Below, piece by piece: positions 9,329 to 52,465 of a stretch of DNA of 64,000 bases. The position numbers and the translations under genes were made by a program. Position 1 is the first letter of the stretch, and each line of letters opens with the position of its first letter. This stretch comes from Bacillota bacterium (lineage in GTDB: Bacteria > Bacillota > UBA4882 > UBA10575), in the NCBI GenBank assembly GCA_012839115.1, contig DUNX01000094.1, forward strand, positions 88-64,087, given 5' to 3'. Under the pieces are notes generated by a model. That model saw only the letters and a program-made list of their open reading frames with translations. It searched no databases and was not told the origin of the DNA.

Positions 9329-9334
9329 GGAAAG

Positions 9335-9440: not shown

Positions 9441-9463
9441 AGGAAGGAGAGGAGGAAGAGGCG

Positions 9464-10027: not shown

Positions 10028-10055
10028 TTTTATTAACTTACCGGCATATCATCCC

Positions 10056-11802: not shown

Positions 11803-11809
11803 AAATGAC

Positions 11810-12040: not shown

Positions 12041-12087
12041 TTATCTTTGCTTTCGGGGTTTTATTTGTCCATCTTGCGCCGGGGTTA

Positions 12088-13128
12088 TTATTTATGCATT
12101 AGGTAGCGGAGGAAGAAGAGTCCCCCAATAAGAGTGGTCAGATAGTAACTGAGGAAACGCCAGATCACCACGGAAACGGCTAAGAGGTGCTTGGGGAGGT
12201 AGATTGAGAAGAGGGAATAGAGTCCCATTTCTGTAAAACCGCTACCGCCGGGGATCGGGATCAAGGAAACCAGGAATAGGATGACGAATTCCAGAAGAAA
12301 CAGGCGGAAGAGGCGGTGGCCAATATTTACACCGAAGCCTTTCAAAACAGCGGGGGCGATGGAGAGGTTAATAAGCCAATAAAGAACGGTCAGGGAAATA
12401 ACCCCGACCACTGGTAAGAAACGGTGACGGAGAATCGTGACCAAACAGCTTTGAAACTCTTGCACTTCGCAAAGGAACCGTTCACAGATGGCTTCAGCCC
12501 GGGCGCCGAGGATCTTCCGGACCAGCCCGAGGGAGAAGACCTTTTTCACCAGGGCTCTTCCATAATGAGGCCGCCAGATAACGACCAGCAGGAAAACGAA
12601 GGAGAGAACCAGAAGGAATAGAAGCATGCTGTTGATGACGACTGACAAGTGTTGAATTCCCAGTTCCTCCAGGAGCCTGCGGCGGAATAAATAGAGGGCG
12701 GCAGGCCCGCCGATCATGAAGAAAAGGGAAGTAAAGACCATCCGGGTCGTAACAATGGCGGTAGCTTTGCCCAGGGAGACCCCTAGACGGTGGAAGAGGT
12801 AAACCTGGGCGGGGACACTCCCGGAAGTAAAAGGGGTTATATTTCCGGTAAAGAGTCCGACCATATTAATCCGGAGGATATTACTAAACCCTACTTTTTC
12901 GCCAAGGGTACCGGCGATCAGCTTTACCCTTAACGCTTCAACAAGCCAGGAAGCAATCACCAAAATCAAGAGCAAAAAGATGGTTTCCGGGTTAAAATAA
13001 AAAATGCTGCGCCAGGTATCAGGGGTGGCGGAATGGAAAAAAAGGAAGGTCAGGGTTGCCAAACTAAAAAGCAGGGTCAGGGTAAGTCCTTTTTTTAAAA
13101 AAGAAGCCGACAGTTTTCCTGTTTCCAT
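12088..13128 (-). CDS. Flippase-like / lysyl-phosphatidylglycerol-synthase transmembrane-domain family protein (UPF0104)
   Basis: 346 aa with about 8 TM segments. Lys-rich N-terminus and a conserved-looking NITPFTSGSVPAQVYL segment typical of PF03706-type proteins. RBS AGGAGG lies before the ATG at 13128. Confidence 0.7.
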   Translation of the reverse strand: METGKLSASFLKKGLTLTLLFSLATLTFLFFHSATPDTWRSIFYFNPETIFLLLILVIASWLVEALRVKLIAGTLGEKVGFSNILRINMVGLFTGNITPFTSGSVPAQVYLFHRLGVSLGKATAIVTTRMVFTSLFFMIGGPAALYLFRRRLLEELGIQHLSVVINSMLLFLLVLSFVFLLVVIWRPHYGRALVKKVFSLGLVRKILGARAEAICERFLCEVQEFQSCLVTILRHRFLPVVGVISLTVLYWLINLSIAPAVLKGFGVNIGHRLFRLFLLEFVILFLVSLIPIPGGSGFTEMGLYSLFSIYLPKHLLAVSVVIWRFLSYYLTTLIGGLFFLRYLMHK

Positions 13129-13467
13129 GAGGAGCCTCCTGAAAAATTAATGAGGGAAAACCCCCTGCGTGGCCCAGACCATATCCGGCGCCAATAGATA
13201 GCCTTCCCGGCCGCTAATAGCTAGTCTTTGCATATGAAGGTTTCGTACGAAGGTTTTATTCCAACAAATATATTTTATTCTCCAAAAAAGGCCGGTTTCC
13301 TGCTGGTGTTTTTTGTTCCTTGTTTTGCAGGAAGAAATCTATGCGCATTCTCTTGCCTGCTCCAGCGAAAAAAGGGAAAGCAGGAACCGGAAAAGGAGAA
13401 AGTAGGAATCTAATGGATAGAATAGAAAAAAAGATATATCTTAAAGAAGAACTGGAGGAGGGAAAAG

Positions 13468-14964
13468 ATGACCAGGAGCCTACGGGTGGATTGTTATGAT
13501 GAAACGGTGGAAGCTGCAGCAGAGATGGGACGCAAGGAGAACGCGGGTTTTATCCTAAGGATTCAGGAGAAAAAAGAGCTTCTCTTCAACCTGAATAACG
13601 GGGAAACGGAGGAGATTGCCACCACTTCTTTACGGGGAATGGGGATCCAGGTATGTACCTCTGAAGGGTACACCGGATTTGCTTCTTCCGACCGGATTGC
13701 CCCTTCGACTGTAAAGGAGCTTTTCCGGCAAGCCTTGGCGCTGGCCAAGAGGGTCGAAGCAATGAAAGGCGAGGTCAATACGGCGCTTTTTAACGTACCG
13801 CCCAATAACCGGCGGGTGGTTATGTCTTTGAAACACCCGTATGGCTCCTGTTCATTGGGGGAAATTGAGGAACGGTTGGTTAAGTTAAATAAAAGCCTGG
13901 CCATGGATCCCCGGCTTTCAGTCCGTACCGTTCACCGGCTGGTGGATGAAGAATGGCGGGTGGCGCGGCACGACGGGACGGATACCGTTTTTATGACACC
14001 CCGCTCCTTTATTTATAATACCTTCACTGCCCGTGAAAACGGGAGGACGGCCACTACTTACAGTAATCTGCCAGGGACCGACCTCTCGATTCTCCTGGAA
14101 CCGGCGGAAACCGCCAAGTTGTATAAAAAGTCGGTTCCCGCGGCGAAGATGGCTTTAGCTCTCTTGAACACCGGGACGGTAAAAAGCGGCTCGTATAAGC
14201 TGGTAATCGATTACGCCTTGGCCAAAGTGCTGGCTCATGAGGCCTTCGGGCACGCGGCGGAGACCGACGGGATGGAAAGCTCCATCCTGGGGGAGAACGG
14301 CCGCTTGCGCCGGGGGATGGAGGTGGCTTCCCCCATTGTTTCGATAATCGACGGCCCGGTGGAAGGGGATTATGCCTACCAGCCGGTCAGTGCCAACGGC
14401 ATTGACCGGCAGACCGTCTATATCGTCCGGGACGGGATCCTCGAGGCTGGCCTGGCCGACCTGTTTTCCGCAGAGGCGGCGGGGGTTCCCGTTACCGGGG
14501 CGGGAAGAGCCGAGGCCTTTTACCACCTGCCTCTGGCGCGAATGTCGAATATCCGGATCCAGGTGAAGGACCCCTGGCCTATTGAGGAAGAGTTTGAGGA
14601 GATAACCCCGGAAAAACTCTATAAGTACATGCTCCAGGCCGGCCTTATGGAAGAGGACGAGGAGGTCTATTACCTCTCCGGTTTCAAGGGCGGCCAGGTT
14701 AATACCGCCGAGGGAAATTTCGTTTTTAACTGTTCCGGCATCTACCGGCTGGGGCCGGTACCCCGTCTTTACCGGCCGGCCATCTATTCCGGGAGGGTCC
14801 TAACGGCGCTCCAGGCGGTCCGGGCGGGTCTTGGGCCTTTAAAGATCGATGCGATGGGGACTTGCGGGAAAATGTTTCAAGGAGTGCCGTCCAGCGGCGG
14901 TTCCCATTATTTTTTGGTTTTGGAGAAAAACCCCGGGATTATGCTTGGAGGTGAAGGCGGGTGA
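13468..14964 (+). CDS. tldD: TldD-family metalloprotease
   Basis: 498 aa. HExxxH-type motif AHEAFGHAAE plus a C-terminal GxC region (MGTCGK) typical of TldD. RBS GGAGGAGGG. Confidence 0.85.
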   Translation: MTRSLRVDCYDETVEAAAEMGRKENAGFILRIQEKKELLFNLNNGETEEIATTSLRGMGIQVCTSEGYTGFASSDRIAPSTVKELFRQALALAKRVEAMKGEVNTALFNVPPNNRRVVMSLKHPYGSCSLGEIEERLVKLNKSLAMDPRLSVRTVHRLVDEEWRVARHDGTDTVFMTPRSFIYNTFTARENGRTATTYSNLPGTDLSILLEPAETAKLYKKSVPAAKMALALLNTGTVKSGSYKLVIDYALAKVLAHEAFGHAAETDGMESSILGENGRLRRGMEVASPIVSIIDGPVEGDYAYQPVSANGIDRQTVYIVRDGILEAGLADLFSAEAAGVPVTGAGRAEAFYHLPLARMSNIRIQVKDPWPIEEEFEEITPEKLYKYMLQAGLMEEDEEVYYLSGFKGGQVNTAEGNFVFNCSGIYRLGPVPRLYRPAIYSGRVLTALQAVRAGLGPLKIDAMGTCGKMFQGVPSSGGSHYFLVLEKNPGIMLGGEGG

Positions 14965-16283
14965 GCGTATTTGGTGAACAACTGCAGGAACGCTTGAATA
15001 TGCTCCTGGGAAAGAGGCTTTCTTCCGGATTAACCCTGACCGGCTGGAGGTTTGACCTGCACGAAGAGGAGCATTTGGAAGCTGGGCTGAAAAACAATAA
15101 AATTGGCGGGCCTTATACCGCCCCGGGTTTAAAACAGGAGAGCAGCGGCGAGATCTGCCTGCTTTGGGCGGAGGAGAAATATACCATTGCCCGGATTGAA
15201 CGGCGGGTATTGGAGGAGTTCGAGGCCAACCTGGAGCTTTGGGAGAAGACGGCCTACAAGGATCCCTACAGACCGGGGCTGGTAAAACCCTATGAACCTC
15301 CGGCCGTGCCTTTGGCTCACGAAGGCGCCGTAGCGATCCTGGATGGAGAGTTTACACCGGCCTTTACTTATTTGGCGGAGGGATTAGAGACAATAACCGG
15401 TTATGGCATAAGCAAGGTCGACGGGTGGGTGAGAGTCTCCCGCGACCGCCGGCTTGTCGCCAATTCGGATGGCTTGTGGATCAGTTATGAGCAGACGCCG
15501 GTCGAGATCTACCTACAAGGAGAGGACCTTTTTGGCGAGGTTTTTGCGGAAAAACGCCTGCCCGCCCCGGAGGAATTTAGTGGATTGGCTGTTCATACCG
15601 GCCGGACGGTTAAGGAACTGAAGAAGAAGACGGTTTTGCCCCGGGAGGGCGAGATGCCTATTATCTTCACGCCCAGGGTGTTTGAGGCCTTTCTCGAGCA
15701 TTATTTGCTCAGTAATTTAAGCGGCCGGTTGGTGGCCAACAGGCAGAGCGCCTTTGCGGCCCAGGATTTTCACGAGGCTAAAAAGGTCTTCCGGGAGGAT
15801 TTGACGATCAGTGTGGATGGTACCCGTCCCTACCGTTATAGTTCGTACCGGTGTACCGGGGAGGGGGTACCGACCGGCCGTGCCGATCTGATCCGGGGAG
15901 GGCGGCTCGTGACGCCGGTCCTGAACCTTAAGTACGCCAAGAAGCTGGGGATGGAGCCGACGCCGGTGCCGGTGGCCGGCGGTCATGGTTTAGTGATTGA
16001 CCTCCCGCACCGGCGAGGCTTTGAAGAGTTCCTTGGGGAACTGGAAGACTGTCTCATCGTTTATTCGGTATTGGGTCTGCATACCCAGGATTATTCGGCG
16101 GGTAAGTTCTCACTCGCCGCCGACCAGAGTCTTTTGGTGCAAAAGGGCCGGATCCAGGGGAAGGTGGAGACTGTACTCGCCGGGGATTTCTGGCAGATCC
16201 TGGCCAGGGAAGACACGGTTTTCCTGGATTATCCGCGGGAGGAGGCTCCGGCCGTCTGTTTTACGGCCCATGTGGCCCAGTAG
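14961..16283 (+). CDS. pmbA: TldE/PmbA-family protein (non-catalytic partner of TldD)
   Basis: 440 aa. GTG start overlaps the tldD stop by 4 nt (translational coupling). TldD/PmbA-fold C-terminus (VYSVLGLHTQDYSAGKFSL) without the HExxxH motif. Confidence 0.75.
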   Translation: MSVFGEQLQERLNMLLGKRLSSGLTLTGWRFDLHEEEHLEAGLKNNKIGGPYTAPGLKQESSGEICLLWAEEKYTIARIERRVLEEFEANLELWEKTAYKDPYRPGLVKPYEPPAVPLAHEGAVAILDGEFTPAFTYLAEGLETITGYGISKVDGWVRVSRDRRLVANSDGLWISYEQTPVEIYLQGEDLFGEVFAEKRLPAPEEFSGLAVHTGRTVKELKKKTVLPREGEMPIIFTPRVFEAFLEHYLLSNLSGRLVANRQSAFAAQDFHEAKKVFREDLTISVDGTRPYRYSSYRCTGEGVPTGRADLIRGGRLVTPVLNLKYAKKLGMEPTPVPVAGGHGLVIDLPHRRGFEEFLGELEDCLIVYSVLGLHTQDYSAGKFSLAADQSLLVQKGRIQGKVETVLAGDFWQILAREDTVFLDYPREEAPAVCFTAHVAQ

Positions 16284-16447
16284 AAAGAGAACCTGTTCAC
16301 GCCGGCTTATGCTGGCAGGGCACGAGTGGAGTGTGGCGAGACTGGGGGCTGACCCGCCGGCAATCCGGCAAGGGCGCCCCCAGGCGCGCTGGGGTTGAGC
16401 GCCGGGCCCGGGTCTGGTTTTAGGCGTTTAACTTCAGCGGCATGCTT

Positions 16448-16515
16448 GAGCACGAGCAACGAGTTACGAGCAACGAGCGACGAGCAACGAGAGACGAGTC
16501 TGCGACGAGCACTGA
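16448..16515. repeat. ACGAG(C/T/A) word array (8 copies at 6-9 nt spacing)
   Basis: GAGCACGAGCAACGAGTTACGAGCAACGAGCGACGAGCAACGAGAGACGAGTCTGCGACGAGCACTGAG, read directly upstream of murD. Confidence 0.85.
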
Positions 16516-16572
16516 GAAGGATCTTCTTTATCAGCGGCGAAATGAAGTAAGAAGGAAATTCAAGGCAAGGTT

Positions 16573-17994
16573 GTGGTTTTTTTAATGACGTATACCGGTA
16601 AAAAAGTGGCGGTTATTGGTTTGGCCGTGAATAATACACCTTTAATAAGGTTTCTGGTTGAACAGGGAGCAGAAGTAACTGTCTTGGATAGAAAAACCCG
16701 TGATGAACTGCGAGAATATCTGGACCGGCTGACGGGGCTGCCGGTCACTTACCGTTTAGGCCCGGATTACCTTGAATATTTGCCTGGGCACGAGGTGGTT
16801 TTTCTCTCCCCCGGCGTCCCGAGGGGGCTTCCTGCCTTACAAGAAGCGGCGACGAGCGGCGCGGTTTTCAGCAGTGAACTGCGGGTTTTTTTGGCCGAGA
16901 ACCGGCGACGGAGCCGTTCGCCGGTTCTCGGGGTTACGGGGAGCAGCGGGAAGACCACCACCACCACTCTACTCGGGATGATGCTGGAAAAGGAGAAACC
17001 GGTGAAGGTGGGGGGGAATATTGGCCGGCCGCCGCTGTCTTTTTTACCGGAACTGACCCCGGAGACCTGGGTTATCCTTGAACTCAGCAGTTTTCAGTTG
17101 CAGGACTTGGGTTACAGTCCCCGGATCGCCGTTTTACTTAACATCACCCCCAATCACCTTGATGTGCACAGTTCCTTTGCCGAATATGTCCAGGCTAAAG
17201 AGGAGATCATCAAAAACCAGTCCAGTGACGATATTGCCATCTTTAATTGGGATAACCCGGTCACCCGCCGGTTGGCCGCGACAGCTAGAGGAAAGGTCTA
17301 TTTCTTTTCCAGGTGCACCTCCAGGTGCACCCAGCCGGAGACCGGCGCTTTCCTCAAAAACGGCGATATCATCTTGAAACTGGACGGGAAGAGGGAAGAG
17401 TATATCTGCCCGGCGGCAGAAAGGCGGCTTCCGGGGGAACACAACTTGGAGAATATCCTTGCCGCCGCCCTCGCCGCCCGCCTGGCCGGCGCTTCCCCGG
17501 CGGCGATCGCCGGTGCTATCCGGGAATTCAAAGGGGTCGAGCACCGTTTGGAGTTCCTCCGGGAGTTGGACGGGGTCGCTTATTACAACGATTCGAAGGC
17601 TACCACCCCCGAAGAGACCATCGCCGGGCTGCGCGCTCTTTCCGCCCCGGTGGTCTTGATTGCCGGCGGGTATGATAAGAAACTTCCTTTCACGGAATTG
17701 GCCAAAGTGGCGGCGGAAAGGTGCCGGGTGGTGATCCTGATGGGGGCGACCGCAGAGAAAATCCGGGAAGCCCTTGAAAAGGAGGAGGGGAGGGACCGGT
17801 TGCTTTCCGGGATCTACCAGGCGGCCACTTTGGAGGAGGCGGTGGCAATTGCCAGGAGCAAAGCCGGATCCGGTGAAACGGTATTGCTTTCACCGGCCTG
17901 TGCCAGTTATGATATGTTCCGTAATTTTGAAGAACGGGGACGGCGCTTTAAAGAGCTGGTCTTCAGTATGCAACCGCTAGAAAAGAGAGAATAG
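16573..17994 (+). CDS. murD: UDP-N-acetylmuramoyl-L-alanine--D-glutamate ligase
   Basis: N-terminal Rossmann segment KKVAVIGLAVNN, P-loop GVTGSSGKTTTT, and C-terminal LLSPACASYDMFRNFEERGRRF typical of MurD. Likely start is the ATG at 16585 (MTYTGKK). Not embedded in a dcw cluster here. Confidence 0.88.
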   Translation: MVFLMTYTGKKVAVIGLAVNNTPLIRFLVEQGAEVTVLDRKTRDELREYLDRLTGLPVTYRLGPDYLEYLPGHEVVFLSPGVPRGLPALQEAATSGAVFSSELRVFLAENRRRSRSPVLGVTGSSGKTTTTTLLGMMLEKEKPVKVGGNIGRPPLSFLPELTPETWVILELSSFQLQDLGYSPRIAVLLNITPNHLDVHSSFAEYVQAKEEIIKNQSSDDIAIFNWDNPVTRRLAATARGKVYFFSRCTSRCTQPETGAFLKNGDIILKLDGKREEYICPAAERRLPGEHNLENILAAALAARLAGASPAAIAGAIREFKGVEHRLEFLRELDGVAYYNDSKATTPEETIAGLRALSAPVVLIAGGYDKKLPFTELAKVAAERCRVVILMGATAEKIREALEKEEGRDRLLSGIYQAATLEEAVAIARSKAGSGETVLLSPACASYDMFRNFEERGRRFKELVFSMQPLEKRE

Positions 17995-18006
17995 GAGGGT
18001 CGTCAG

Positions 18007-18234
18007 TTGTGGACGGTTCTATATATTGCGCCCAGCCGGTCGGTGGCTTTGCGAATTCGGGATTTTATGGAAGCCGAAGGGATCCTGGTCCGCTTACGCC
18101 CTCTTGGCCTGCGGACGGACGATCATACTACTGATTATGAGATTCTAGTAACCGAGGTAGAGTTGGAGGAGGCGCAGGAAGTTTTGCACCAAGCCCTCCA
18201 AGTCCGTCAATTCAGGGAATTAAGAACGAAGTAA
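18007..18234 (+). CDS. Small hypothetical protein (75 aa), apparently coupled to murD
   Basis: TTG start lies 7 nt after GGAGGG, which overlaps the murD stop. Acidic C-terminal helix. No family recognised. Confidence 0.5.
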   Translation: MWTVLYIAPSRSVALRIRDFMEAEGILVRLRPLGLRTDDHTTDYEILVTEVELEEAQEVLHQALQVRQFRELRTK

Positions 18235-18352
18235 CATATTACAGAAGGAATTAGCAGAGACTTGCCGAATTCTTTTACTTTATTGTTTTTTAAGATTATT
18301 GTTTTTAAGATTATTTTCAAGGTGATGGCAGGACGGTGAGGTGTTGCAACAG

Positions 18353-19267
18353 ATGTTAAAAGACCTTTTCAAGCCGAAACCCAAATATGTAACGATTAAG
18401 CGGCCGGAGGAGAGGGGGATCCAGCCCGGGCAACCGGAAAAGAAGGAACTCCCTGACGGGCTGTGGGTTAAATGTAATAATTGCCGGCAGATTATTTACC
18501 ATAAAGATTTGGAAAGCAACTTAAAGGTCTGCCCGAAATGCAACTATCATTTCCGGCTGCGGGCCGGAGAACGCATTGCCTATCTTTTTGACGCCGACAG
18601 CATTCAGGAGTACGATTCCGGTCTCATCTCAAAGAACCCATTGGAGTTTCCTGATTATGAAGAAAAAATTGAAAAAGCCCGGAAAAGAACAGGATTGAAT
18701 GAGGGTGTGGTTACCGGCGTCGCAACGGTCCAGAATATACCTTGCGTTTTTTCTGTGATGGATTTCGGCTTTATGGGTGGTTCCATGGGTTCGGTAGTAG
18801 GGGAGAAAATTAGCAGGGCTTTTGAATATGCGGTTGAACACAACCTGCCGGTAATAAGCGTCACCGCCGGCGGCGGGGGCGCGCGCATGCAGGAAGGTAT
18901 TATTTCCCTGATGCAGATGGCCAAGACGTGCCAGGCCTTAAACCGCCTGCATGAGAAGAAGATCTTTTATCTGTCCATCCTGACCGACCCGACGATGGGC
19001 GGGGTATTTGCCAGTTTTGCCTCTCTCGGTGATGTTGTTATTGCCGAACCCGGGGCCTTGATTGGCTTTGCCGGTCCCCGGGTCATCGAGCAGACGATCA
19101 GGCAAACGCTGCCGGCGGGGTTCCAGAGATCCGAGTTTCTCCTGGAACACGGGATCATCGATCTGATTGTTGAGCGGAAAAACCTCCGGGAAACCGTAGC
19201 CCGCCTCTTACGTTTCCACCAAACAGAAGAGGTGAGAGAGGTGAGTGAGGTGAGCAAGGATGAGTAA
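18353..19267 (+). CDS. accD: Acetyl-CoA carboxylase carboxyltransferase beta subunit
   Basis: N-terminus [12 protein letters not shown] matches the usual AccD start. Zn ribbon CNNC...CPKC. GGSMG motif. The track ORF begins 12 nt earlier at a GTG. Confidence 0.92.
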
Positions 19268-20243
19268 TGGCAACAGCTATAACATGGAATTTGAAAAACC
19301 GCTGCGGGAATTGGAGAGGCAGATAAAGGAGATCGAGCTTTTCGCCAAAGAAAAAGAGATTGACATGAGCGAAGAGATCGCGCGCCTGCAAGATAAAGAA
19401 GAAGCTTTAAAGAAAAAGATCTACAGTGAACTGACCCGCTGGCAGAAGGTGCAGATTGCCCGTCATCCCAAACGCCCTACCTTCCTGGAGTTTGTTGAGA
19501 TGATCTTCAGCGGTTTTCTGGAATTACACGGCGACCGGTTGTTCCGGGACGACCCGGCGATGATCGGCGGTATTGCCTATTTAAATGATATCCCCATTAC
19601 CGTGGTGGGGCAGCAGAAAGGGCGCGATACCAAGGAAAACATCTACAGGAATTTTGGGATGCCCCATCCGGAGGGCTACCGGAAAGCCCTGCGCCTAATG
19701 AAACAGGCGGCTAAATTTAAGCGGCCGGTAATCACCCTTATCGATGTGGTAGGGGCTTATCCGGGGATCGAAGCGGAAGAAAGAGGACAGGGAGAAGCAG
19801 TGGCCCGTTCGATCATGGAGATGGCGGCCCTGGAGACCCCGATTATTGCCGTTATTACCGGCGAAGGCGGGAGCGGCGGCGCTTTGGGGATCGGGGTGGG
19901 CGACCGCATTCTCATGTTGGAGCATGCTTATTATTCCGTGATTTCTCCCGAGGGTTGCGCTTCGATTCTCTGGAAAAATGCGGCGGAGGCGCCACAGGCT
20001 GTGGAGGCCCTGCGGGTAACAGCGAAAGACCTATTGCAACTACAGGTGATTGATGAGATAATTCCGGAGCCGTTGGGCGGTGCGCACCACGATCCGGAAA
20101 AAACCGCCAAGACCATTAGAGAAGCTCTGATCCGTCATTTAGCGCCGTTATTGGAATACCCGGCCGGACAGCTGCTGGCGGAGCGGTATGAGAAGTACCG
20201 GAAGATTGGAGTTTTTGAGGAAATAGAGCAGACAGAAGAGTAG
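19260..20243 (+). CDS. accA: Acetyl-CoA carboxylase carboxyltransferase alpha subunit
   Basis: [17 protein letters not shown] start region, IARHPKRP and [10 protein letters not shown] motifs. Overlaps the accD stop. Confidence 0.92.
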
Positions 20244-20284
20244 CACGCGTGTGTCAAGTTTCAAAGAGGCTAAGGGGGAAGCAG

Positions 20285-21283
20285 ATGAAAAGGATTGCTG
20301 TTATTACCAGCGGTGGGGATGCACCGGGAATGAACGCAGCCATCAGGGCGGTGACCTTAAAAGGGCTGAATGCGGGCTGCCAGGTTTTTGGGGTGAAAAA
20401 AGGCTATCAAGGGCTGATCACCGGCGAAATTGTGGAACTGAATTCATATGCCGTTTCCCAGATTTTGCACAGGGGCGGGACGATCCTCTTTTCCACTAGA
20501 TGTCCGGAGTTTAAAGAAGAACAAGGGATGAAAAAAGCGAAGGAGCATTTGGAACGGTTAGGTATTGAAGGTCTGATCGTGATCGGCGGCGACGGTTCTT
20601 TCCGGGGCGCCATGGACCTGAGCAAAATGGGGTTTGCGGTGATCGGTATCCCGGCAACCATCGATAATGACATAGGCGGAACAGAACTCTCTTTAGGTTT
20701 TGATACCGCAGTCAATACGGCATTGGATGCCATTAACAAGATTAGGGATACCGCCATCTCCCACGAACGGGTCTATGTGGTCGAAGTTATGGGACGCAAC
20801 GCCGGGTTCATTGCCCTCTACGCCGGTCTTGCCGGGGCGGCGGACGCCATCCTCATCCCTGAGGTAGAACCGGACCTGGACGAGGTGGTCTTCAGGGTGA
20901 AAAACGCCACGGCCAAAGGACGGGGCCATTCTATTGTCGTGGTTGCCGAGGGGCTTTTCGGCAACCCCATGAGCGGGCGGACCACTGCGGAAAGCAGCGC
21001 TTTTAAAGTCGGCAACTATGTCATGGAAAAGACGGGGAAAGACACAAGAATCACCATTCTCGGCCACTTGCAGCGGGGCGGCTCGCCGTCGGCGACCGAC
21101 CGGATTTTAGGGACCAGGTTCGGAGCCAAAGCCATGGAACAGCTCTTGAGCGGCGCCACCGAGCAGATGTTGGGGTGGAATAAGAATGAGGTTACGATCG
21201 GGCCGCTGCGTGACGGGATTACCAAACGAAACCAGTTGGATCTTACGCTCTTGTCCTTAGCCGACCTTTTGGCTGTAACCTAA
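20285..21283 (+). CDS. pfkA: ATP-dependent 6-phosphofructokinase
   Basis: MKRIAVITSGGDAPGMNAAIR, GGDGS, PATIDND and MGR motifs. The ATG at 20285 lies within the longer track ORF. Confidence 0.93.
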   Translation: MKRIAVITSGGDAPGMNAAIRAVTLKGLNAGCQVFGVKKGYQGLITGEIVELNSYAVSQILHRGGTILFSTRCPEFKEEQGMKKAKEHLERLGIEGLIVIGGDGSFRGAMDLSKMGFAVIGIPATIDNDIGGTELSLGFDTAVNTALDAINKIRDTAISHERVYVVEVMGRNAGFIALYAGLAGAADAILIPEVEPDLDEVVFRVKNATAKGRGHSIVVVAEGLFGNPMSGRTTAESSAFKVGNYVMEKTGKDTRITILGHLQRGGSPSATDRILGTRFGAKAMEQLLSGATEQMLGWNKNEVTIGPLRDGITKRNQLDLTLLSLADLLAVT

Positions 21284-34085: not shown

Positions 34086-34328
34086 ATTTAACCCCTGCAA
34101 CAAAAAGGGAGCTCACCGCTCCTTTTTTGTTGTCGCCGCGCGTGCCCACCCACGCAACACAAACCCGGCAAGAGCTGCGGAAATTTTGTGAACTTCGATG
34201 ACTACTGGAAAATATAAAAAAAATCGGATAGGAGAGAAGGAAAAAGGGGAATTATCTAGAATAGATAAAAGACGTTTTTTATCCCAGTGTTTTCCTCTAA
34301 CATTCAAAGACTGGAAGGAGGTGAGCTA

Positions 34329-34604
34329 ATGACCAAGGCAGAATTAATTGAAAAAGTAGCAGATAAGAGCAATCTGACCAAAAAGGACTCCGGAAAGGCA
34401 GTGGACGCCGTTTTGGCAACCATGACAGAGGCTTTAGCCCGGGGGGAAAAGATACAACTGGTTGGTTTTGGAAGCTTTGAGGTGAGAAAAAGAGGAGCCC
34501 GTACCGGACGGAATCCTCAGACCGGAGCGGCAATTAAGATTGCTGCCAGAAAGGTGCCGGTTTTCAAGCCGGGCAAGGCTCTAAAGGATGCAGTGGACAA
34601 GTAG
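34329..34604 (+). CDS. hup: DNA-binding protein HU
   Basis: [11 protein letters not shown]...[21 protein letters not shown]...[28 protein letters not shown]. spoIVA-hbs synteny as in Bacillus. Confidence 0.93.
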
Positions 34605-34626
34605 ACTTCCTTTCGGTTCAATACTT

Positions 34627-34652
34627 AAAGCGGGGTAAATCCCGCTTTTTTT
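34627..34652 (+). terminator. Intrinsic terminator after hup
   Basis: AGCGGG (34629-34634) pairs with CCCGCT (34641-34646). Followed by T6. Confidence 0.85.
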
Positions 34653-34752
34653 ATATTTTTTTTCGGCCGCTCTCTGCTTAACTTTCGGGAGCGCTTATGG
34701 TATAATCTAATAGTTGCCGTAAACGCGGCAAGCGCACGATATCCGCGAGACC

Positions 34753-35331
34753 ATGGAGGCGATGGTTGTGGATGGGAAAAGGGTTTTCCGGGAGATCCTT
34801 GAAGTAGTTATTCCGGCTTTAATTCTCTTCTTGATAATCAGGGCTTTTCTCTTTGAGGCCAGGTATGTACCGAGCCCGTCAATGCATCCCACGATCATGG
34901 TTTGGGACCGTTTTCTTGTGGAGAAGGTTACTTACCGTTTTCGCAAGCCCGAACGCGGTGAAATTGTGGTTTTTCGCCCGCCTGAACAGGTGCTCAAAAT
35001 GATGAAAGAGGCGCCTGTGCCGAACACGCCCTTGCAAACCCAGGATTTTATCAAACGCATCATCGGCCTGCCCGGGGAGACGGTCTGGATCCGGGAAGGA
35101 ACGGTTTATATTGACGGCCGGCCGTTAGCTGAAGACTACATCTCGCCGGAACGGGAACCTTTATATGAATTCGGGCCGGTGCGGATCCCGGCGGATCATT
35201 ATCTGATGTTGGGAGATAACAGGAATCAAAGCTGGGATGGGCACAATTGGGGTTTTGTCCCGCGGAAAAACATTATCGGCCGGGCGTTTTGGCGGTTCTG
35301 GCCCTTGAACCGGATGGGTCCTATCCGGTGA
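34753..35331 (+). CDS. lepB: Signal peptidase I
   Basis: TM anchor, catalytic Ser box (PSPSMHPT), Lys box (FIKRIIGLPGE) and GDNRNQSWD box. Confidence 0.88.
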   Translation: MEAMVVDGKRVFREILEVVIPALILFLIIRAFLFEARYVPSPSMHPTIMVWDRFLVEKVTYRFRKPERGEIVVFRPPEQVLKMMKEAPVPNTPLQTQDFIKRIIGLPGETVWIREGTVYIDGRPLAEDYISPEREPLYEFGPVRIPADHYLMLGDNRNQSWDGHNWGFVPRKNIIGRAFWRFWPLNRMGPIR

Positions 35332-35411
35332 GGAATGGTCATCCGCTGACGGATGGGGCGCCAATGATGGGCAGATTTTCCGTGACGAATGGGCATCCGC
35401 TGATGGGTTCC
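35328..35411. repeat. Imperfect 30-nt direct repeat (GTGA[GC]GAATGG[TG]CATCCGCTGA...) spaced 54 bp
   Basis: Copies at 35328-35358 and 35382-35411. Followed by the palindrome ATCCGTAAACGGAT at about 35453-35466. Confidence 0.6.
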
Positions 35412-35529
35412 ACCCGTTGCTGGACGGGCAGCTGTTCACAGGTGTTCCGGTCCATCCGTAAACGGATATCCGGACGGGAACGGTTTTTTTCTCTTTTTCG
35501 TTCTTTAAGAAAGAAGAAGGAGAGGTCCG

Positions 35530-36183
35530 ATGCGGTTAGAAGCTTTTGTTTTAGGGGAGATAGCGGTCAATTCCTATCTACTCTGGGATGAAGGGACAAA
35601 AGAGGCTGTTTGTATCGACCCGGGCCGGCCTGCTGCCGAAGTTGTCAAGGCTGTTAAAGCAAAAGGGTTGCGTTTGACGAGGATCCTTCTTACCCACGGA
35701 CATGCCGACCATATCGGCGGGGTGGCAGAAGTGAAGAACGCAACCGGCGCTTCAGTCGCAGCCCATTCTGCCACCGCGCCCGTGTTGGCTAACCCCGCGC
35801 TCAACCTCTCACAGCTCTTTGGGGAAGAAATTGTGGTCTACCCCGACACTTTGCTGGCCGATGGCGATATTATCCCTATTGGCAGTGTTCTTTTGAAAGT
35901 CCGGCATACCCCGGGGCATTCCCCGGGCGGTATTTGCGTATTTGGACCGGGGTTGGTCTTTACCGGGGATCTGATTTTTGCCGGGAGTGTCGGCCGGACG
36001 GATTTACCCGGCGGCAACCTGGCAACACTGATGCAAAGCGTAACAGAACTGATGCAACTGCCCGATGAGACCAGGCTTTTTCCCGGACACGGGCCCCCGA
36101 CCATGGTCGGCCGGGAACGGTTGACCAATCCGTTCGTAAAAGAATTGGGTGGTAAAGACGGCCGGCCGTCGCATCCTGATTGA
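35530..36183 (+). CDS. MBL-fold metallo-hydrolase (hydroxyacylglutathione-hydrolase-like)
   Basis: HGHADHIGG metal motif and a later HTPGHSPG motif. 217 aa. RBS AAGGAGAGG. Confidence 0.85.
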   Translation: MRLEAFVLGEIAVNSYLLWDEGTKEAVCIDPGRPAAEVVKAVKAKGLRLTRILLTHGHADHIGGVAEVKNATGASVAAHSATAPVLANPALNLSQLFGEEIVVYPDTLLADGDIIPIGSVLLKVRHTPGHSPGGICVFGPGLVFTGDLIFAGSVGRTDLPGGNLATLMQSVTELMQLPDETRLFPGHGPPTMVGRERLTNPFVKELGGKDGRPSHPD

Positions 36184-36347
36184 CAAGATAGGGGCCTTTG
36201 GGTAAAATATTGAAAGAATTCCCGCCGGTTTTTCCTCGCCGCGATGGACTTGCGCGCCCGCGCGCAATCGGCCATGGAAAGCAGCGAGTTTTTTTATAGA
36301 CGCCCCCACAAAGGGTTATCAATTTTGACTTTAAGGAGGAGTTTATC

Positions 36348-37844
36348 GTGATTGTGAAAATCCGCCAGTTATCGCAGGTCTTGTTGGCTCCGATTGTCGT
36401 TCTTATTGTCGCCGGTCTTTTGGTTACTATTTTTATCGGTATGCCACGCAGGGACCAGAGCCCTTACATTTATAAAGGGCCCTCCGTGAAGATAAACGGG
36501 GTCAAGGTAAAAGATGATGATTTTAACAAGGTTTATATGGAATTGGTGCGGTTATACGGCCATCGGCAGACTCAGGAGAGCCTCATGAATCAAGCACTGG
36601 AGATCCTAATCAACGAGGAACTGATCAAGCAGATCCTGAAGGAACGCAAGATTGAAGCCGACCGCGAGGAGATTAAGGCCTTTATCACAAGGGTACAGCA
36701 GGTTTATCCAACTGAAGAAGAGTTGGAGATGTACCTTTACCAGGTAGGGGTACAAGACCTGAAAGCATTGGAGGACTTTTACCGCGAGATTTTGCTGCGG
36801 CAAACCCTTTATCTGCAGGTGGCGGAGGAAAGAGGTATTGAAGTACCCGAAGACAAAATCCGCGCGGCGGAAGACCAACTCCGCCAGGTGTACGAAACCA
36901 TCGAGTTTTCTCACATCTTGATCGCCACCGATCCGGAGTTGACGGGAATATCCCGTTCCGACCGGGAGGCTTTGCAAAAGGCCGAGGATATTTATGAACG
37001 GATTATGGCCGGAGAGGACTTTGCCAAGCTGGCGGCGGAGCATTCGGATGACGAGAGCACCGCGGAGTTGGGCGGACGGATAGAAGAGAGAACTATTGCC
37101 TATTTCCGGCAGACCCTGGAGCAGAACTTTATCGAAACCGCCTTGCAACTGGCGGCCGGGGAGGTCAGCAGGCCGGTTAAAACCCGGTATGGTTACCACA
37201 TTATCAGGGTTGAGAACGTGAAATCTGCCAAAGGCGAAGAATGGGAAAAAGAAAAGGAGACTCTCCGCAAGGGATTATTGCTGGACGAGTTGGATGAGAG
37301 CGGGGAGATGAACAACTGGGTGACGGCAGAGCGGGAGAAGGCGGATATCAAGGTCCTGGATCCGGCACTCCGGGGATACCGTTTCAAGCAAGAGGAGAAA
37401 TGGGGGGAGGCGGCTCTGGCTTATGCCAAAGCCCTGAAGGATAAGAGATACCGCCGGAATCTGGAGGTACACCTTTCCGCGGTTGAGGCTTACCGGCAGA
37501 TCGGGGATTATGAGACGGCCCTGGATGTCCTGGCGAAGACCCCGGAAAAGATCCGGAGAGAACCGGATTATGCCTTGGCCAAAGCCCGTGTCTTGCATGC
37601 CCGGGGAACGGTGGACGAGGCGAAAACAACCTTGGCTGCTGCCGTGGAAAAAGCAGGAGAGGACATCAGCGGCCTCAACTATATCCTTATGGTCGCGGAG
37701 GAACTGGAACTGACGGAAGAGGCGGAGGCTTTAAAAGCAAAGCTCGACAAGATCGAGGAGGAAAGAGAAGCGGAACGGCAGGAACTGGAACGGTTGTTCA
37801 TGGAAGAACAGAAGAAATTGGAGGAAGCTGCCGGGGAAAAATAG
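36348..37844 (+). CDS. Membrane-anchored parvulin-type peptidyl-prolyl isomerase (PrsA/SurA-like) with helical C-terminal extension
   Basis: N-terminal TM, SurA-N-like helical region, PpiC domain (FSHILI...GYHIIRV), then TPR-like and E/K-rich coiled-coil tail. RBS AAGGAGGAG. Confidence 0.8.
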   Translation: MIVKIRQLSQVLLAPIVVLIVAGLLVTIFIGMPRRDQSPYIYKGPSVKINGVKVKDDDFNKVYMELVRLYGHRQTQESLMNQALEILINEELIKQILKERKIEADREEIKAFITRVQQVYPTEEELEMYLYQVGVQDLKALEDFYREILLRQTLYLQVAEERGIEVPEDKIRAAEDQLRQVYETIEFSHILIATDPELTGISRSDREALQKAEDIYERIMAGEDFAKLAAEHSDDESTAELGGRIEERTIAYFRQTLEQNFIETALQLAAGEVSRPVKTRYGYHIIRVENVKSAKGEEWEKEKETLRKGLLLDELDESGEMNNWVTAEREKADIKVLDPALRGYRFKQEEKWGEAALAYAKALKDKRYRRNLEVHLSAVEAYRQIGDYETALDVLAKTPEKIRREPDYALAKARVLHARGTVDEAKTTLAAAVEKAGEDISGLNYILMVAEELELTEEAEALKAKLDKIEEEREAERQELERLFMEEQKKLEEAAGEK

Positions 37845-41069: not shown

Positions 41070-41255
41070 AGAAGCGATACCCTGCCGTGTGCGTGGTGAA
41101 GCTGAAGTTATGAACCAACACCATTACCTGGGGAGCCGGACTCTGTTAGCGGCATGTAAGCCTTCGTGGTAAGGACACATAAAGCGAACAGGAGGCGCCC
41201 ACCTGCAAGAGCGGGTTCAGGTAACATTCAGCGATAGCGCCATGGCGGGGTTTTT
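41070..41255 (+). ncRNA. ssrS: 6S RNA
   Basis: About 185-nt non-coding segment directly after aspS (as for B. subtilis 6S-1) and directly before the 5-formyl-THF cyclo-ligase gene (as for E. coli ssrS-ygfA). The 5' arm ACCCTGCCGTG (41079-41089) pairs with the 3' arm CATGGCGGGGT (41241-41251) to form the closing stem. Ends in T5. Internal sequence is compatible with a large central bubble. Confidence 0.7.
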
Positions 41256-47292: not shown

Positions 47293-48006
47293 TTGCCGTT
47301 CTTAAAAAAATGGGCCAGGCTGGTTCTCATCTGCAGCCTGCTGGTAATAGCCATAATCCTTTTTTCCGGCGTGACCCTTTTCAACCACTACCTGGAGAAG
47401 GAGTTTACGCAAACGATCACGAGAGAGACCAAAATAGCGGAGGATATAGATTGGCATCTGGCGCCGTTGGGCTTATTTGATCTGATCCGGGGGCGAACAA
47501 GGGATCTTCAATTTTCCGCCGGCCGCTTGGCTTTTCAGGACGGACCGGTCCTTGAGGATTTTACTCTCAAGAGCCGGGGTATTCAGTTGAACCGGAATGC
47601 CTTCTTGTTTGAGGGGAAGATCGAGGTTCAGAAATTGGCCGAAACGGAATTGACCTTCCGGATCGCCGAAACGGAATTGACCTCCTTTTTGCAGGATGAG
47701 TGGCCGGAATTCGTTCCTTCCGTAGAGTTATCGCCCGGGGCCGTCAGGATCGAAGGAATAGTCAAGGAGCCGCTTTTAAAAGAGGAATTACCCTTTACCG
47801 CTTCCGTCCGCCTGGAACAGGCCTCCGGTAACAGTTTACGCCTAACCCCTGTCAACATTAAGATCGGTGATTTTGAGGTGCCGCCCGGGGTATTTGCGAA
47901 AGAGATCTTGAACTGGCAGTTTCCCCTGGAACTGCCCTGGCCTTTAATGATCAAAGATTTCCAGGTGGAAGAGGGGTTTTTGCGCATGCAATGGCGGGAG
48001 AAATAA
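47293..48006 (+). CDS. Membrane-anchored hypothetical protein, DUF2993 / LmeA-like (tentative)
   Basis: 237 aa. N-terminal TM, then beta-rich repeats with the pattern seen in DUF2993 proteins. Family assignment is from memory only. Confidence 0.5.
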   Translation: MPFLKKWARLVLICSLLVIAIILFSGVTLFNHYLEKEFTQTITRETKIAEDIDWHLAPLGLFDLIRGRTRDLQFSAGRLAFQDGPVLEDFTLKSRGIQLNRNAFLFEGKIEVQKLAETELTFRIAETELTSFLQDEWPEFVPSVELSPGAVRIEGIVKEPLLKEELPFTASVRLEQASGNSLRLTPVNIKIGDFEVPPGVFAKEILNWQFPLELPWPLMIKDFQVEEGFLRMQWREK

Positions 48007-48051: not shown

Positions 48052-49263
48052 ATGAGGTATTTCGTTTCCGCCGGGGATCACTCCGGGGATATGCATGGTG
48101 CAACTTTGGTCCGGGAGATCAGAAAACTTGACCCGGGGGCGGAGTTCTACGGGATGGGCGGACCGCTGCTGGCCGGGGCGGGAGTTAAGATTTCCTTTGA
48201 TCCCACCCGGTACAGTACGATTGGTTTTTTGGAGGCAGCCGGCCAATATTTTCGTTTTCGCCGTTTACTCCGGGTTTTTACCCGCCTATTAACGGAAAAC
48301 CGGCCCGACGTTTTGCTCTGGATTGATTTTGGCGGCTTTAACCTGGCCTTGGCAGAGCAGGCACGGAAACTATCCATTCCGGTCGTCTGCCTTTTTGCCC
48401 CTTCCGCCTGGGCCTACGGGAAAAAAAGGGCCGTCCGGATGAGGAATTGTGTCTCGCATTTGGCCGCGGTCATGGGGTTCGAAGCCGATTTTTTCCGCAG
48501 TTTCGGGCTGAAAGTGACCTATACCGGCCATCCCCTGCTCGATAGAGTTGAGGGCGTTCTTCCCCGGGAACAATGGCGGAAGACCCGGGGGATTGGGGAT
48601 GAAGAAACCGTTGTGGTTTTAATGCCGGGAAGCCGCAGGCAAGAGGTGGAGGCTTTGCTCCCGGTGATGCTGGCGGCGGCAAAAAAACTTGCCGGCGAAG
48701 ACCCGGAGGCGGGCAAAAAAATCCGGTTCTTTTTGCCCCTGGCGCCGACGATCGAGAAATGGCGGTTAAATGCTTTACTGGCGAATTTCCCGGAGGTCAC
48801 CGTGGTCAATGAAGATATCTATCCTTTGCTGGCCGGGGCCGACCTTGGCGTGATTACTTCCGGTACCGCCACTTTGGAAGCGGCGCTCCTGGGGTTGCCG
48901 GCGGTTGTCGTTTACCGCCTTTCCCCCATTACGGTCTTTATCTTCCGGCGGTGGCTACGGAATAAGGAGGAGAAGAACAGGGAATTATTGGTTGCCCTCC
49001 CGAACCTGATTGCCGGGAGGAAAGTCATCCCCGAGCTTATCCAGGAAGACCTGACCCCGGAAAACCTGAAAAACGAGATGGCAAAGTTATTATGGGACGA
49101 AAAGGCCCGGGCGGAGATCAAGGCGGAATACACAAAGCTCCAGGGCCAACTGGGTCCGCCCGGGGTGATGGCCAGAGTCGCCCGGATCGTTATGGCGGAA
49201 GCCCAGGCCCGCCCCAGTCCTAAAGCAGGGCAAGATACACAAGAGAATGAACATGCCCAATAG
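48052..49263 (+). CDS. lpxB: Lipid-A-disaccharide synthase homologue (GT19, LpxB-like)
   Basis: 403 aa. Alignable by eye with E. coli LpxB along its length: SAGDHSGDMHG (cf. AGETSGD), APSAWAYGKKR (cf. SPSVWAWRQKR), LMPGSRRQEVE (cf. LLPGSRGAEVE), LPNLIAGRKVIPELIQ (cf. LPNLLAGRELVKELLQ). Confidence 0.85.
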   Translation: MRYFVSAGDHSGDMHGATLVREIRKLDPGAEFYGMGGPLLAGAGVKISFDPTRYSTIGFLEAAGQYFRFRRLLRVFTRLLTENRPDVLLWIDFGGFNLALAEQARKLSIPVVCLFAPSAWAYGKKRAVRMRNCVSHLAAVMGFEADFFRSFGLKVTYTGHPLLDRVEGVLPREQWRKTRGIGDEETVVVLMPGSRRQEVEALLPVMLAAAKKLAGEDPEAGKKIRFFLPLAPTIEKWRLNALLANFPEVTVVNEDIYPLLAGADLGVITSGTATLEAALLGLPAVVVYRLSPITVFIFRRWLRNKEEKNRELLVALPNLIAGRKVIPELIQEDLTPENLKNEMAKLLWDEKARAEIKAEYTKLQGQLGPPGVMARVARIVMAEAQARPSPKAGQDTQENEHAQ

Positions 49264-51261: not shown

Positions 51262-51579
51262 GATTCGCACGGTGGCGCCTATAAAAAGCAAAATACGCAT
51301 TATTACCATTATTTGCTAGATTGAGTTACTCTTTTTTTAACATCGAGAAAAAGGAAGAAAGAGAAATATGGCGTATATAGTAAAAGAAAACAGATACTCC
51401 AGGAAGTAAACAAGCCGTGCGCAAGAGCGTGCAAATTCCCGCCTACACAGGTCCCGCATACGCGGGCGTCGCGTACAAGGGAAGGGGTGAAAAAATAAAA
51501 CGGGCGTCAAGTCCCGCGCCCGCGCGCTGGTGCGCCGCTTACGCAGTAGCTTGTGGAGTAAAGAGGAGGCGTTTTTAAG

Positions 51580-52074
51580 TTGAAAAGAATAACCACTGTT
51601 TTGCTGGCGGTAATCATTTTGGCAGTTTTTCCTGCGGCCGCGTGGGGTCTGAACACACCTGCTGTCTCGCGGAATCATGGAGTGGTCACCGCCAGATTCA
51701 TCAGTGATGCCGGCCTGTTCCTCGGAGGAGAATATGGGGTCACCGAGGATCTGGCGATCCTGGCGGAGCTTGGATCCAAGAACTCGAACAGGATAGGCCT
51801 GAAATACCAGATCGGCCGGTTGGCTGTGACGGGAGGAGTAATGAGCTCCTCAGTCTTTTTCGGGCTTAATGGCGGCGGGGCGCTGGGCAATAAGCTCACC
51901 GGGATCTTTGAGGTCGATGCGGTGATGGCCAGCGGCGAACTGGGTTTCCTTTATGAAGTAGGGGTTAAGTTCGATATTGACCGGAAAATTGATCTCCGGG
52001 GCGGGCTGTATGGCGCCACTTTTGGGTCATTCAGTTCCCTGCAATTCCAGATCGGCGTGGGGTATAGTTTTTAA
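51580..52074 (+). CDS. Small secreted protein with outer-membrane beta-barrel-like features
   Basis: 164 aa. Cleavable signal peptide (..FPAAAWG/L). About 8-10 amphipathic alternating-hydrophobic segments separated by G/N/D/S turns. C-terminal QIGVGYSF ends in Phe, like the beta-signal of OMPs. RBS AGAGGAGG. Confidence 0.55.
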   Translation: MKRITTVLLAVIILAVFPAAAWGLNTPAVSRNHGVVTARFISDAGLFLGGEYGVTEDLAILAELGSKNSNRIGLKYQIGRLAVTGGVMSSSVFFGLNGGGALGNKLTGIFEVDAVMASGELGFLYEVGVKFDIDRKIDLRGGLYGATFGSFSSLQFQIGVGYSF

Positions 52075-52079: not shown

Positions 52080-52108
52080 TTGACAAACAGTACATTAATG
52101 AGTATATT
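52080..52108 (+). promoter_or_regulatory. Sigma-A-type promoter for the valS leader
   Basis: TTGACA (52080-52085), 17-bp spacer, TATATT (52103-52108). Confidence 0.6.
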
Positions 52109-52139: not shown

Positions 52140-52465
52140 GATTATAACGATGACCGGAAGGAGTAGCCCCGCGTGCGGATCCCGCCACAGCAGACTTTCA
52201 CCATATGTGGCAGGGAATCGCGGGCGAACCTGCAGCAGAGAACGGGTCCGGCGCAGGCGCGCAAGGCTGGAAGACCCGGCAGGGGCAGGGGTGAAGGTCG
52301 TCCGGGAGTTCTCCGGCTGAAAAGCTGCAAAAAGGCACAGGAGTAAGCCGGAGCGGCCAGGCCCGTTAACGCCGCGCAAGCGCCCCTGTTCCGCCCTGGC
52401 GTACAGGGGAAAAAAGGTGGTACCGCGAAGACCTTTCGTCCTTTAGTGATGGAAGGTCTTTTTTC
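52140..52465 (+). promoter_or_regulatory. T-box riboswitch leader (valS)
   Basis: Stem I start AACGATGA..GGAAGGAGTAG (GA motif + AGTA box), AGAGA box (CAGAGAAC), F-box-like CCGTTAA, and the conserved T-box sequence AAAAAGGTGGTACCGCG (52411-52427). This overlaps a terminator (AAGACCTTTC / GGAAGGTCTT + T6, 52428-52465). GTC triplets occur in the candidate specifier region GAAGGTCGTCC (~52293-52303). Confidence 0.85.

Follow-up and report, generated by a model that had tools for sequence, protein, structure and literature searches.

A predicted ten-stranded outer-membrane beta-barrel of unusually small size in a diderm Bacillota bacterium

A gene at positions 51580 to 52074 of a 64,000-nucleotide stretch of Bacillota DNA (GenBank assembly GCA_012839115.1, contig DUNX01000094.1, positions 88 to 64,087 of the forward strand; this whole stretch is called the window below) encodes a small secreted protein that very likely forms a beta-barrel in the outer membrane (OM). 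Structural models give the barrel ten strands, and this number probably holds. The protein represents a family that is new and unnamed and that is of a known kind, the small OmpX/OmpA-type barrels. The host is a diderm that makes lipopolysaccharide (LPS), and the protein is more plausibly a structural or very-low-permeability OM protein than a porin.

The gene and its secreted product

The features of the gene and of its product are as follows.

51580..52074, + strand: coding sequence of the small barrel protein, a 164-residue precursor, stop codon included (colinear orthologues; dN/dS, the ratio of nonsynonymous to synonymous substitution rates)
51564..51569, + strand: Shine-Dalgarno sequence AGGAGG, 10 nt before the TTG (read from the sequence)
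51580..51648, + strand: residues 1-23, Sec signal peptide; predicted signal peptidase I cleavage between A-W-G and L (sequence and family alignment)
51649..51678, + strand: mature N-terminal decapeptide L-N-T-P-A-V-S-R-N-H, residues 24-33, predicted to be periplasmic and ahead of strand 1 (alignment)
51679..52068, + strand: predicted ten-stranded beta-barrel body, residues 34-163 (AlphaFold2, Foldseek, face analysis)
52042..52071, + strand: C-terminal strand with the beta-signal Q-F-Q-I-G-V-G-Y-S-F (family alignment)

The gene is genuine, because it has a ribosome-binding site, a start codon common to its orthologues, and dN/dS values of 0.22 and 0.33 (against two orthologues); it is under purifying selection. 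Translation of the 164 codons starts at a TTG, and the orthologues have ATG or TTG as the same aligned start codon. The initial annotation, which was made from sequence, described a 164-residue secreted protein with a signal peptide. This description is correct: the open reading frame (ORF) lies exactly at 51580..52074, and the signal peptide is followed by a conserved cleavage site.

The signal peptide consists of MKR, a hydrophobic core, and then the A-W-G that precedes L. It has no lipobox, and there is no Cys anywhere in the 164-residue product. Residues 2-16 form a helix in the AlphaFold2 model, with low to moderate confidence. In an alignment of 48 relatives, the predicted cleavage falls after A-x-A/G and directly before a conserved [LFMIV]-N/T-T/S-P, leaving a mature chain of 141 residues (~14.8 kDa, 18% Gly). 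The decapeptide at the start of this chain has the consensus LNTPxVxxxHG in the 48-sequence family, with P27 at least 90% conserved, and its residues 24-33 have no regular secondary structure as assigned by DSSP. The decapeptide may serve as a plug or as a partner-binding tail.

A predicted ten-stranded barrel

AlphaFold2 places strands at residues 34-41, 45-53, 58-64, 71-78, 81-88, 91-101, 106-117, 120-132, 137-148, and 151-163. With 9 sequences as input, the model has ten strands and a predicted local distance difference test (pLDDT) score of 78; with 48 sequences the strands are identical, the mean pLDDT rises to 90.4 (five models, 89-90), and the predicted template modeling score (pTM) is 0.76. 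The ten alternating segments originally picked out in the raw sequence coincide one-to-one with these ten strands. Structure prediction, which had been proposed as a check of the barrel assignment, thus yielded a confident all-beta, ten-strand model, and its full-length superpositions are on closed OM barrels only.

Each strand has one hydrophobic face, with Kyte-Doolittle (KD) values of +1.5 to +3.5, and a second face of polar residues or Gly. The beta alternation of the mature chain exceeds chance: its mean 180-degree hydrophobic moment, 1.23, compares with 0.84 +/- 0.11 in 5000 shuffles (z = 3.4), 7 of which reach the observed value. In both AlphaFold2 models the first five strands have 7-9 residues each, fewer than the 11-13 of strands 6-10.

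The connections between strands are 2-6 residues long on both sides of the membrane in the model. If the usual topology is assumed, with both termini in the periplasm, the extracellular connections are SDA, GSKNSN, SS, SG, and GS, and the periplasmic ones are VTED, GR, LGNK, and IDRK. As modeled, such minimal connections on both sides would be unusual among natural OM proteins, and almost nothing would protrude from the membrane. The early remark that this would be an unusually small barrel is in keeping with ten strands in 141 residues, joined by connections of this length.

Conservation in the family follows the two predicted faces of the strands. Family-wide, the hydrophobic face has a mean KD value of +2.08 and the other face of -0.76. 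The hydrophobic face stays hydrophobic yet exchanges freely among L, I, V, and F. On the predicted lumen face, Gly is conserved at positions 49, 53, 73, 86, 95, 128, 142, 159, and 161, and the conserved charged or polar residues E51, K75, N97, E111, E126, D138, and R140 all fall in the periplasmic half. Lumen positions in the extracellular half vary. Aromatic residues are conserved near the periplasmic strand ends (Y52, Y76, F/Y131, Y162, and F164), and Y125 is conserved as well. A conserved polar and Gly face together with a variable hydrophobic face suits a membrane barrel whose polar interior is structured, and is the reverse of the pattern of a soluble barrel.

The C-terminus carries a signature of the type recognized by the beta-barrel assembly machinery (BAM), as had been proposed from the terminal Phe, and the family alignment strengthens this assignment. 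The family consensus is G-x-G-Y-x-F, in which G159 is invariant and G161 is at least 90% conserved. All 48 relatives end in an aromatic residue (44 in F and 4 in Y), and 44 of the 48 have Y or F at position -3.

Matches to known folds and families

Pfam family PF13505 (OMP_b-brl) matches the protein end to end (profile positions 3-175 of 175; 19.6 bits, E = 1.1e-3). The same profile matches 31 of the 48 relatives at E <= 0.01, with a best value of 1.3e-8. Profiles for the OmpA transmembrane domain, OmpX/Ail, and OmpW gave no Pfam match at E <= 1 and none in NCBIfam, and a scan of the protein against NCBIfam returned no family. Of the profile matches originally suggested as a check, the OMP_b-brl signal was therefore found, below threshold in the present protein and at E <= 0.01 in 31 of 48 relatives, and the OmpW and OmpA transmembrane matches were not. 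When the 9-sequence and the 48-sequence profile were searched against the Protein Data Bank (PDB), no chain matched significantly. The best match, obtained with the family profile, was Ail/OmpX (E = 0.19), across the last three strands and including G-x-G-Y-x-F; another, to a metalloprotease, was at chance level.

A Foldseek comparison of the model with the PDB gave OM barrels only among the 50 listed matches. These include designed transmembrane beta-barrels (TMBs) of 8, 10, and 12 strands as well as OmpA, OprF-N, KdgM, OmpX, NspA, OmpW, and Pla; the top match is an 8-strand design. The designed ten-strand barrel TMB10_163 superimposes with a root-mean-square deviation (rmsd) of 4.8-5.3 Å over 144-148 columns (template modeling [TM] score ~0.5), the lowest rmsd among the matches of 141-143 residues. 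This superposition of a model offers indirect evidence that the barrel is closed.

Several known classes were considered and rejected. General diffusion porins such as OmpF and OmpM have 16-18 strands and a constriction loop and are usually trimeric; the present protein has ten predicted strands, 141 residues, and loops of at most 6. Omptins and OpcA are 10-stranded proteins of ~250-300 residues with long extracellular strands and, in omptins, a catalytic Asp/His groove; the present protein has half that length and no Pfam omptin match, and the Foldseek match to Pla has a target-normalized TM-score of 0.33-0.35. Membership in PagP, PagL, or LpxR was rejected, with no direct alignment to these enzymes made, on the lack of a Pfam or NCBIfam match and of any conserved His, Ser, or acidic residue on the hydrophobic face.

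An unnamed family in Omp85-positive lineages

The family was defined by a profile search that covered all of 1.84 billion representative sequences. It comprises 52 clusters (at 50% identity) at E <= 1e-3, of which 48 reach E <= 1e-10, and no known larger family appeared among the matches. Full-length members have 158-177 residues, with one exception of 187 residues; the few shorter matches are fragments. A word-based search returned 11 close relatives, for which the sole name was "hypothetical protein". Named members include JCM16358_00950 of Halanaerocella petrolearia and proteins of Firmicutes/Bacillota metagenome-assembled genomes (MAGs), all "hypothetical", from the lineages Halanaerobiales and GTDB Firmicutes_G.

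Somewhat longer relatives of ~180 residues also occur in Halanaerobiales. One example is BBF96_10855 of Anoxybacter fermentans, which UniRef labels as an OM beta-barrel domain protein. These proteins match the family profile with E values of 1e-7 to 1e-8 and share the N-terminal motif, an E-G-E/D-Y/F-G-L-T motif, and the overall layout. Unlike the family members, however, they are 16-18 residues longer and end in I or L rather than in F or Y, and they form a separate subfamily.

Within the host's own class, Omp85 is present in 58 of 58 species genomes and the barrel family in 40 of the 58, including 20 of 20 from the host's own taxonomic family; some genomes of the class carry two or three family copies. 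In a sample of 401 genomes across the phylum, 99 have Omp85 and 18 have the family, and every one of the 18 is Omp85-positive. Were the two traits independent, a result of 18 out of 18 would have a probability of ~(99/401)^18, or ~1e-11, a figure that treats related genomes as independent and so overstates the significance. No match at E <= 1e-5 was seen in any other Omp85-positive family sampled among these 401 genomes. A search for paralogues in the host's own genome (family hidden Markov model against six-frame ORFs) returned only the gene itself. PF13505 gave two further sub-threshold frames in the host genome, both with internal stops.

A host with an outer membrane

The host assembly (2.35 Mb in 148 contigs, 96.9% complete, 52.6% GC) encodes three proteins of the Omp85 family. 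The best of these is a BamA of 559 residues with POTRA repeats, an Omp85 domain, and a terminal Phe, so that a search for bamA, the other check originally proposed, was positive. BamA belongs to a cluster on contig C94 (~8650-20971) that also encodes TamB (1486 residues), Skp/OmpH, LpxD, and LptF/G. LpxC, LpxA, and LpxI are encoded on contig C28 (~34180-37552); a 142-residue ORF between LpxC and LpxA could be called FabZ only as a guess. The window itself contains lpxB (48052-49263; 263.8 bits, Pfam), which is separated from the barrel gene by two NodB genes. This lpxB is not an orphan, because LpxA, LpxC, LpxD, and LpxI are encoded elsewhere in the genome. The host genome also encodes SLH-domain proteins.

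With the Raetz pathway, LPS export, and the machinery of BAM and of the translocation and assembly module (TAM) present, the host is an LPS-making diderm. The barrel had been flagged as unexpected if the organism were monoderm. That condition does not apply, given the encoded BamA, TamB, Skp, Lpx, and LptF/G proteins, and an OM barrel is not out of place because the host makes a full outer membrane.

Within this host, the Raetz pathway genes are spread over at least three loci, and LpxI is used. In the OM biogenesis cluster on contig C94, a 793-residue ORF (8650-11031, minus strand) without a Pfam match adjoins LptF/G and is, by position, a candidate for a divergent LptD-like protein or another OM component. 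A genome of the same genus (G016) holds contig JAAYGG010000144.1; the GTDB genus JAAYGG01 has been described as a hydrolytic and acidogenic biogas-reactor organism of the phylum Firmicutes_G (PMC10608942). The host, which comes from an anaerobic digester, is placed in this genus.

Proposed role and alternatives

It is reasonably probable that the protein is a structural or very-low-permeability OM protein and not a porin. Sec would export the precursor (with secA 6 kb upstream of the gene), and signal peptidase I would cleave it after A-W-G. Skp/OmpH would carry the mature protein across the periplasm, and BamA/TamB would insert the barrel, recognizing the C-terminal G-x-G-Y-x-F. The parts needed for assembly are all encoded, and from them we infer the pathway itself. 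The mature 141 residues would fold into ten antiparallel strands as a monomer with turns of 2-6 residues, and on the lipid-facing side the conserved Y52, Y76, Y125, and Y162 would lie at the periplasmic interface. The periplasmic-half cluster of E51, K75, N97, E111, E126, D138, and R140 would constitute an internal salt-bridge network, as in OmpA/OmpX-type barrels, and with this network in place the lumen would be either packed or open by no more than a few angstroms. Through such a compact structural protein, water and small ions would pass at low conductance if at all, perhaps by a gated path, and the protein would not act as a general porin, adhesin, or receptor.

A rough estimate of the lumen is consistent with this proposal. 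In an ideal ten-strand geometry, R is ~9-9.6 Å, and the 52 lumen-facing side chains would occupy ~3150 Å^3. Little free lumen would be expected because this volume, at normal packing, nearly fills a cavity ~25 Å high. A precedent exists in the diderm Firmicute Veillonella parvula, whose two predicted 10-strand OM proteins are reported to have occluded lumens and very low permeation (PMC10628300). The OmpA-like FNLLGLLA_00518 passed only glycine and putrescine, slowly, in liposome swelling, and FNLLGLLA_00833, called a "porin", is the sixth most abundant OM protein (PMC10628300). In the present case barrel closure, lumen occlusion, OM localization, and physiological role are all inferred.

Several points weigh against this proposal. 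"Structural" is a default assignment, and 12 of the 52 lumen-facing positions are Gly, which leaves room for a small pore. A designed ten-strand barrel, TMB10_165, conducts 108 pS through a pore of ~4 Å (bioRxiv 10.1101/2023.12.20.572500). As regards the barrel itself, the PF13505 score of 19.6 bits lies below the curated gathering cut-off of 28.7, and by the Pfam criterion the protein is a remote relative of the OMP_b-brl clan and not a member. TM-scores to solved barrels are 0.4-0.55, and there is no close structural relative.

Alternatively, the protein could be a minimal nanopore of natural origin, a channel for small solutes or ions. Its barrel would keep an open, water-filled path lined by Gly and by a ring of conserved E, K, D, and R, and this ring would act as a selectivity filter or gate for ions, water, or a very small metabolite. 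The lumen Gly residues, a mean lumen side-chain volume of only ~61 Å^3, and the confinement of the conserved charges to one half of the lumen would suit such a channel. So would the 4-5 Å pore of the closest-sized structure, the designed TMB10, with the conductance of TMB10_165 given above, and the slow passage of glycine and putrescine through the Veillonella barrel (PMC10628300). However, the natural 10-stranded barrels studied so far are occluded (PMC10628300), the side-chain volume with packing density taken into account nearly fills the ideal n = 10 lumen, and no transport-related neighbor is present in any gene context. A channel appears unlikely, if still the foremost competitor of a structural role.

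A broader and rather improbable idea is that the family is nature's minimal OM barrel, a Halanaerobiia/Firmicutes_G-specific counterpart of the TMB10 nanopores in which the charge ring and the L-N-T-P-x-V peptide do a specific job. This job might be that of a salt-bridge-gated ion or water channel, or a thinning of the membrane by strands 1-5 that aids lipid or LPS handling.

A lipid-handling function would also be suggested by the neighborhood of the gene. The barrel could be a PagP/PagL-like lipid A enzyme, or a lipid-handling barrel tied to an LmeA-like protein, LpxB, and the two NodB deacetylases; in a variant, the wall formed by the short strands 1-5 would thin the membrane locally. Relatives down to 57% protein identity share the gene order secA-prfB-LmeA-like-lpxB-NodB-NodB-OMP-(T-box) valS, and the asymmetry in strand length is present in both models. 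On the other hand, more distant family members adjoin unrelated genes, as do second copies within the same taxonomic family, and 318 nt of non-coding DNA with its own promoter-like block separate the gene from the upstream deacetylase. The protein also matches no Pfam or NCBIfam enzyme family, and no conserved set of His, Ser, Asp, or Glu is found on the lipid face. The position of His33 is His only as a majority of at least 50% in the 48-sequence family, and Ser90, invariant in nine close relatives, belongs to no invariant or nearly invariant column in the alignment of 48. A lipid A enzyme or lipid-handling barrel is therefore very unlikely.

It is likewise highly doubtful that the protein is an ordinary 8-stranded barrel of the OmpX/OmpA type whose strands have been over-split by AlphaFold2. 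The members of Pfam OMP_b-brl and the weakly matching Ail/OmpX are 8-stranded, as is the top Foldseek match. However, the raw sequence has ten amphipathic segments, each bounded by Gly, Asn, Asp, or Ser turns, and two AlphaFold2 runs, including all five models of the second (pLDDT ~90), give ten strands. Eight strands would have to be 15-18 residues long, which the conserved turn positions disallow.

Finally, a soluble secreted or periplasmic beta-barrel of the lipocalin, fatty acid-binding protein (FABP), or avidin-like type, with the hydrophobic face turned inward, would fit the alternating hydrophobicity taken alone, and FABP-type barrels also have ten strands in ~130 residues, but such a barrel is extremely unlikely: none is among the 50 listed Foldseek matches, the C-terminal motif runs to the very last residue in all 48 relatives, OMP_b-brl is matched, the family is seen only in Omp85-positive genomes, and the conserved identities lie on the polar face, where a soluble barrel would be expected to have a variable surface.

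The locus and its neighbors

Three further features surround the gene.

51348..51386, + strand: promoter-like block AAAAGGAAGAAAGAGAAATATGGCGTATATAGTAAAAG; no other upstream stretch is conserved between the window and the three orthologous loci L009, L007, and L004 (proteins down to 57% identity)
51410..51555, + strand: GC-rich, palindrome-rich insertion of ~150 nt in the 5' leader, which in the alignment the window shares with L007 and which L009 and L004 lack
52141..52446: T-box leader of valS (full-length Rfam match, 80.3 bits, E = 1.9e-17)

The conserved block is purine-rich and ends in ...GGAAGAAAGAGAAATATGGCGTATATAGT in all four orthologous loci. A scan of the block for sigma-70 elements found no promoter and no -35 box. 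To judge by its letters only, a GGAAG-N14-CGTAT arrangement within the block may loosely recall promoters of the extracytoplasmic function (ECF) type. The insertion farther downstream may be a small mobile or repeat element. An Rfam search of the 318-nt spacer for a riboswitch or small RNA gave only a chance-level match to Hrs13 (E = 0.38).

Downstream, valS has its own near-consensus sigma-70 promoter (11 of 12 positions, 52080-52108), located directly after the barrel stop codon. The T-box score of 80.3 bits is below the Rfam gathering score of 93; the leader has 113 nt where the Stem I region of the model has 47, and this length may explain the sub-threshold score. The initial annotation placed the barrel gene next to a T-box-controlled valS. 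The T-box is real, but the adjacency is found only in close relatives and valS has a promoter of its own. The barrel gene looks like a stand-alone unit. In proteobacteria, ompA and ompX also stand alone.

Within the host's own taxonomic family alone, the gene occurs in three unrelated contexts. Besides the lpxB/valS locus, it is found between an RseP-like M50 protease and a DUF4015/M29 pair and between GNAT/Hsp20 genes and an RlmA-like methyltransferase; a location beside a serine dehydratase also occurs. Clustering of the neighbors at 17 loci, in a search for a conserved operon partner, found none. A functional link of the barrel gene to lpxB, the deacetylases, or valS was therefore rejected, the adjacency being lineage-specific synteny.

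Two barrel copies each are present in several genomes of the same taxonomic family (G011, G012, G018, G005, G009, G019, and others; loci L033-L035, L040, and L041), with each context, the RseP/DUF4015/M29 locus and the Hsp20/GNAT/RlmA locus, conserved. The genome of the window has a single copy, at the lpxB/valS locus.

Elsewhere in the window, a putative lipid-binding LmeA-like protein (PF11209, DUF2993; 47293-48006) is encoded directly upstream of lpxB. The two genes stay paired in relatives as distant as the genus labeled g5, and the LmeA-like protein is a candidate envelope lipid-transfer partner of LpxB. A 6S RNA (RF00013, 90.3 bits) lies at 41076-41255, between aspS and the gene for 5-formyltetrahydrofolate cyclo-ligase.

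Significance

The debate over the origin of one-membraned bacteria gives a central place to the outer membranes of diderm Firmicutes, whose protein inventory is known mainly from Veillonella. The present work adds an unannotated, widely conserved family of small OM proteins specific to Halanaerobiales and Firmicutes_G. The family could be used as a marker for calling a MAG diderm, supplies a candidate abundant OM protein for the metaproteomics of anaerobic digesters, and is a natural template that matches designed 10-strand nanopores in size. Nothing is overturned by it; the apparent paradox of such a barrel in a monoderm disappears, given the complete BAM and LPS machinery.

Comparison with known barrels

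The classical small barrels OmpX, Ail, and NspA and the transmembrane domains of OmpA and OprF resemble the present protein in having a Sec signal, ~140-170 residues, amphipathic antiparallel strands, and a signal of the G-x-G-Y-x-F type. Like the barrels of the OMP_b-brl/MBB clan, which Foldseek matches with a probability of 1.0, the protein is predicted to have an interior with Gly and a charged network. However, these small barrels have eight strands, compared with the ten predicted here. In addition, OmpX and Ail project long strands or loops, whereas the extracellular loops of the present protein would have only 2-6 residues, and it differs from the compared MBB-clan barrels in lacking a periplasmic domain.

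The V. parvula proteins 00833 and 00518, which are compared here by description only, are similar in coming from a diderm Firmicute, in having a ten-strand AlphaFold2 prediction, and in being argued not to be general porins. Unlike the present protein, 00518 carries an OmpA domain.

In size and layout, the designed barrels TMB10_163 and TMB10_165 (PDB 8UZL) are alike, with 141-143 residues, ten strands, and minimal hairpins on both sides. They differ in being artificial, in sharing only 14-15% identity with the present protein, and in having been built to hold a 4-5 Å water pore. Only the natural family has the conserved charged cluster, the conserved N-terminal peptide, and strands of unequal length.

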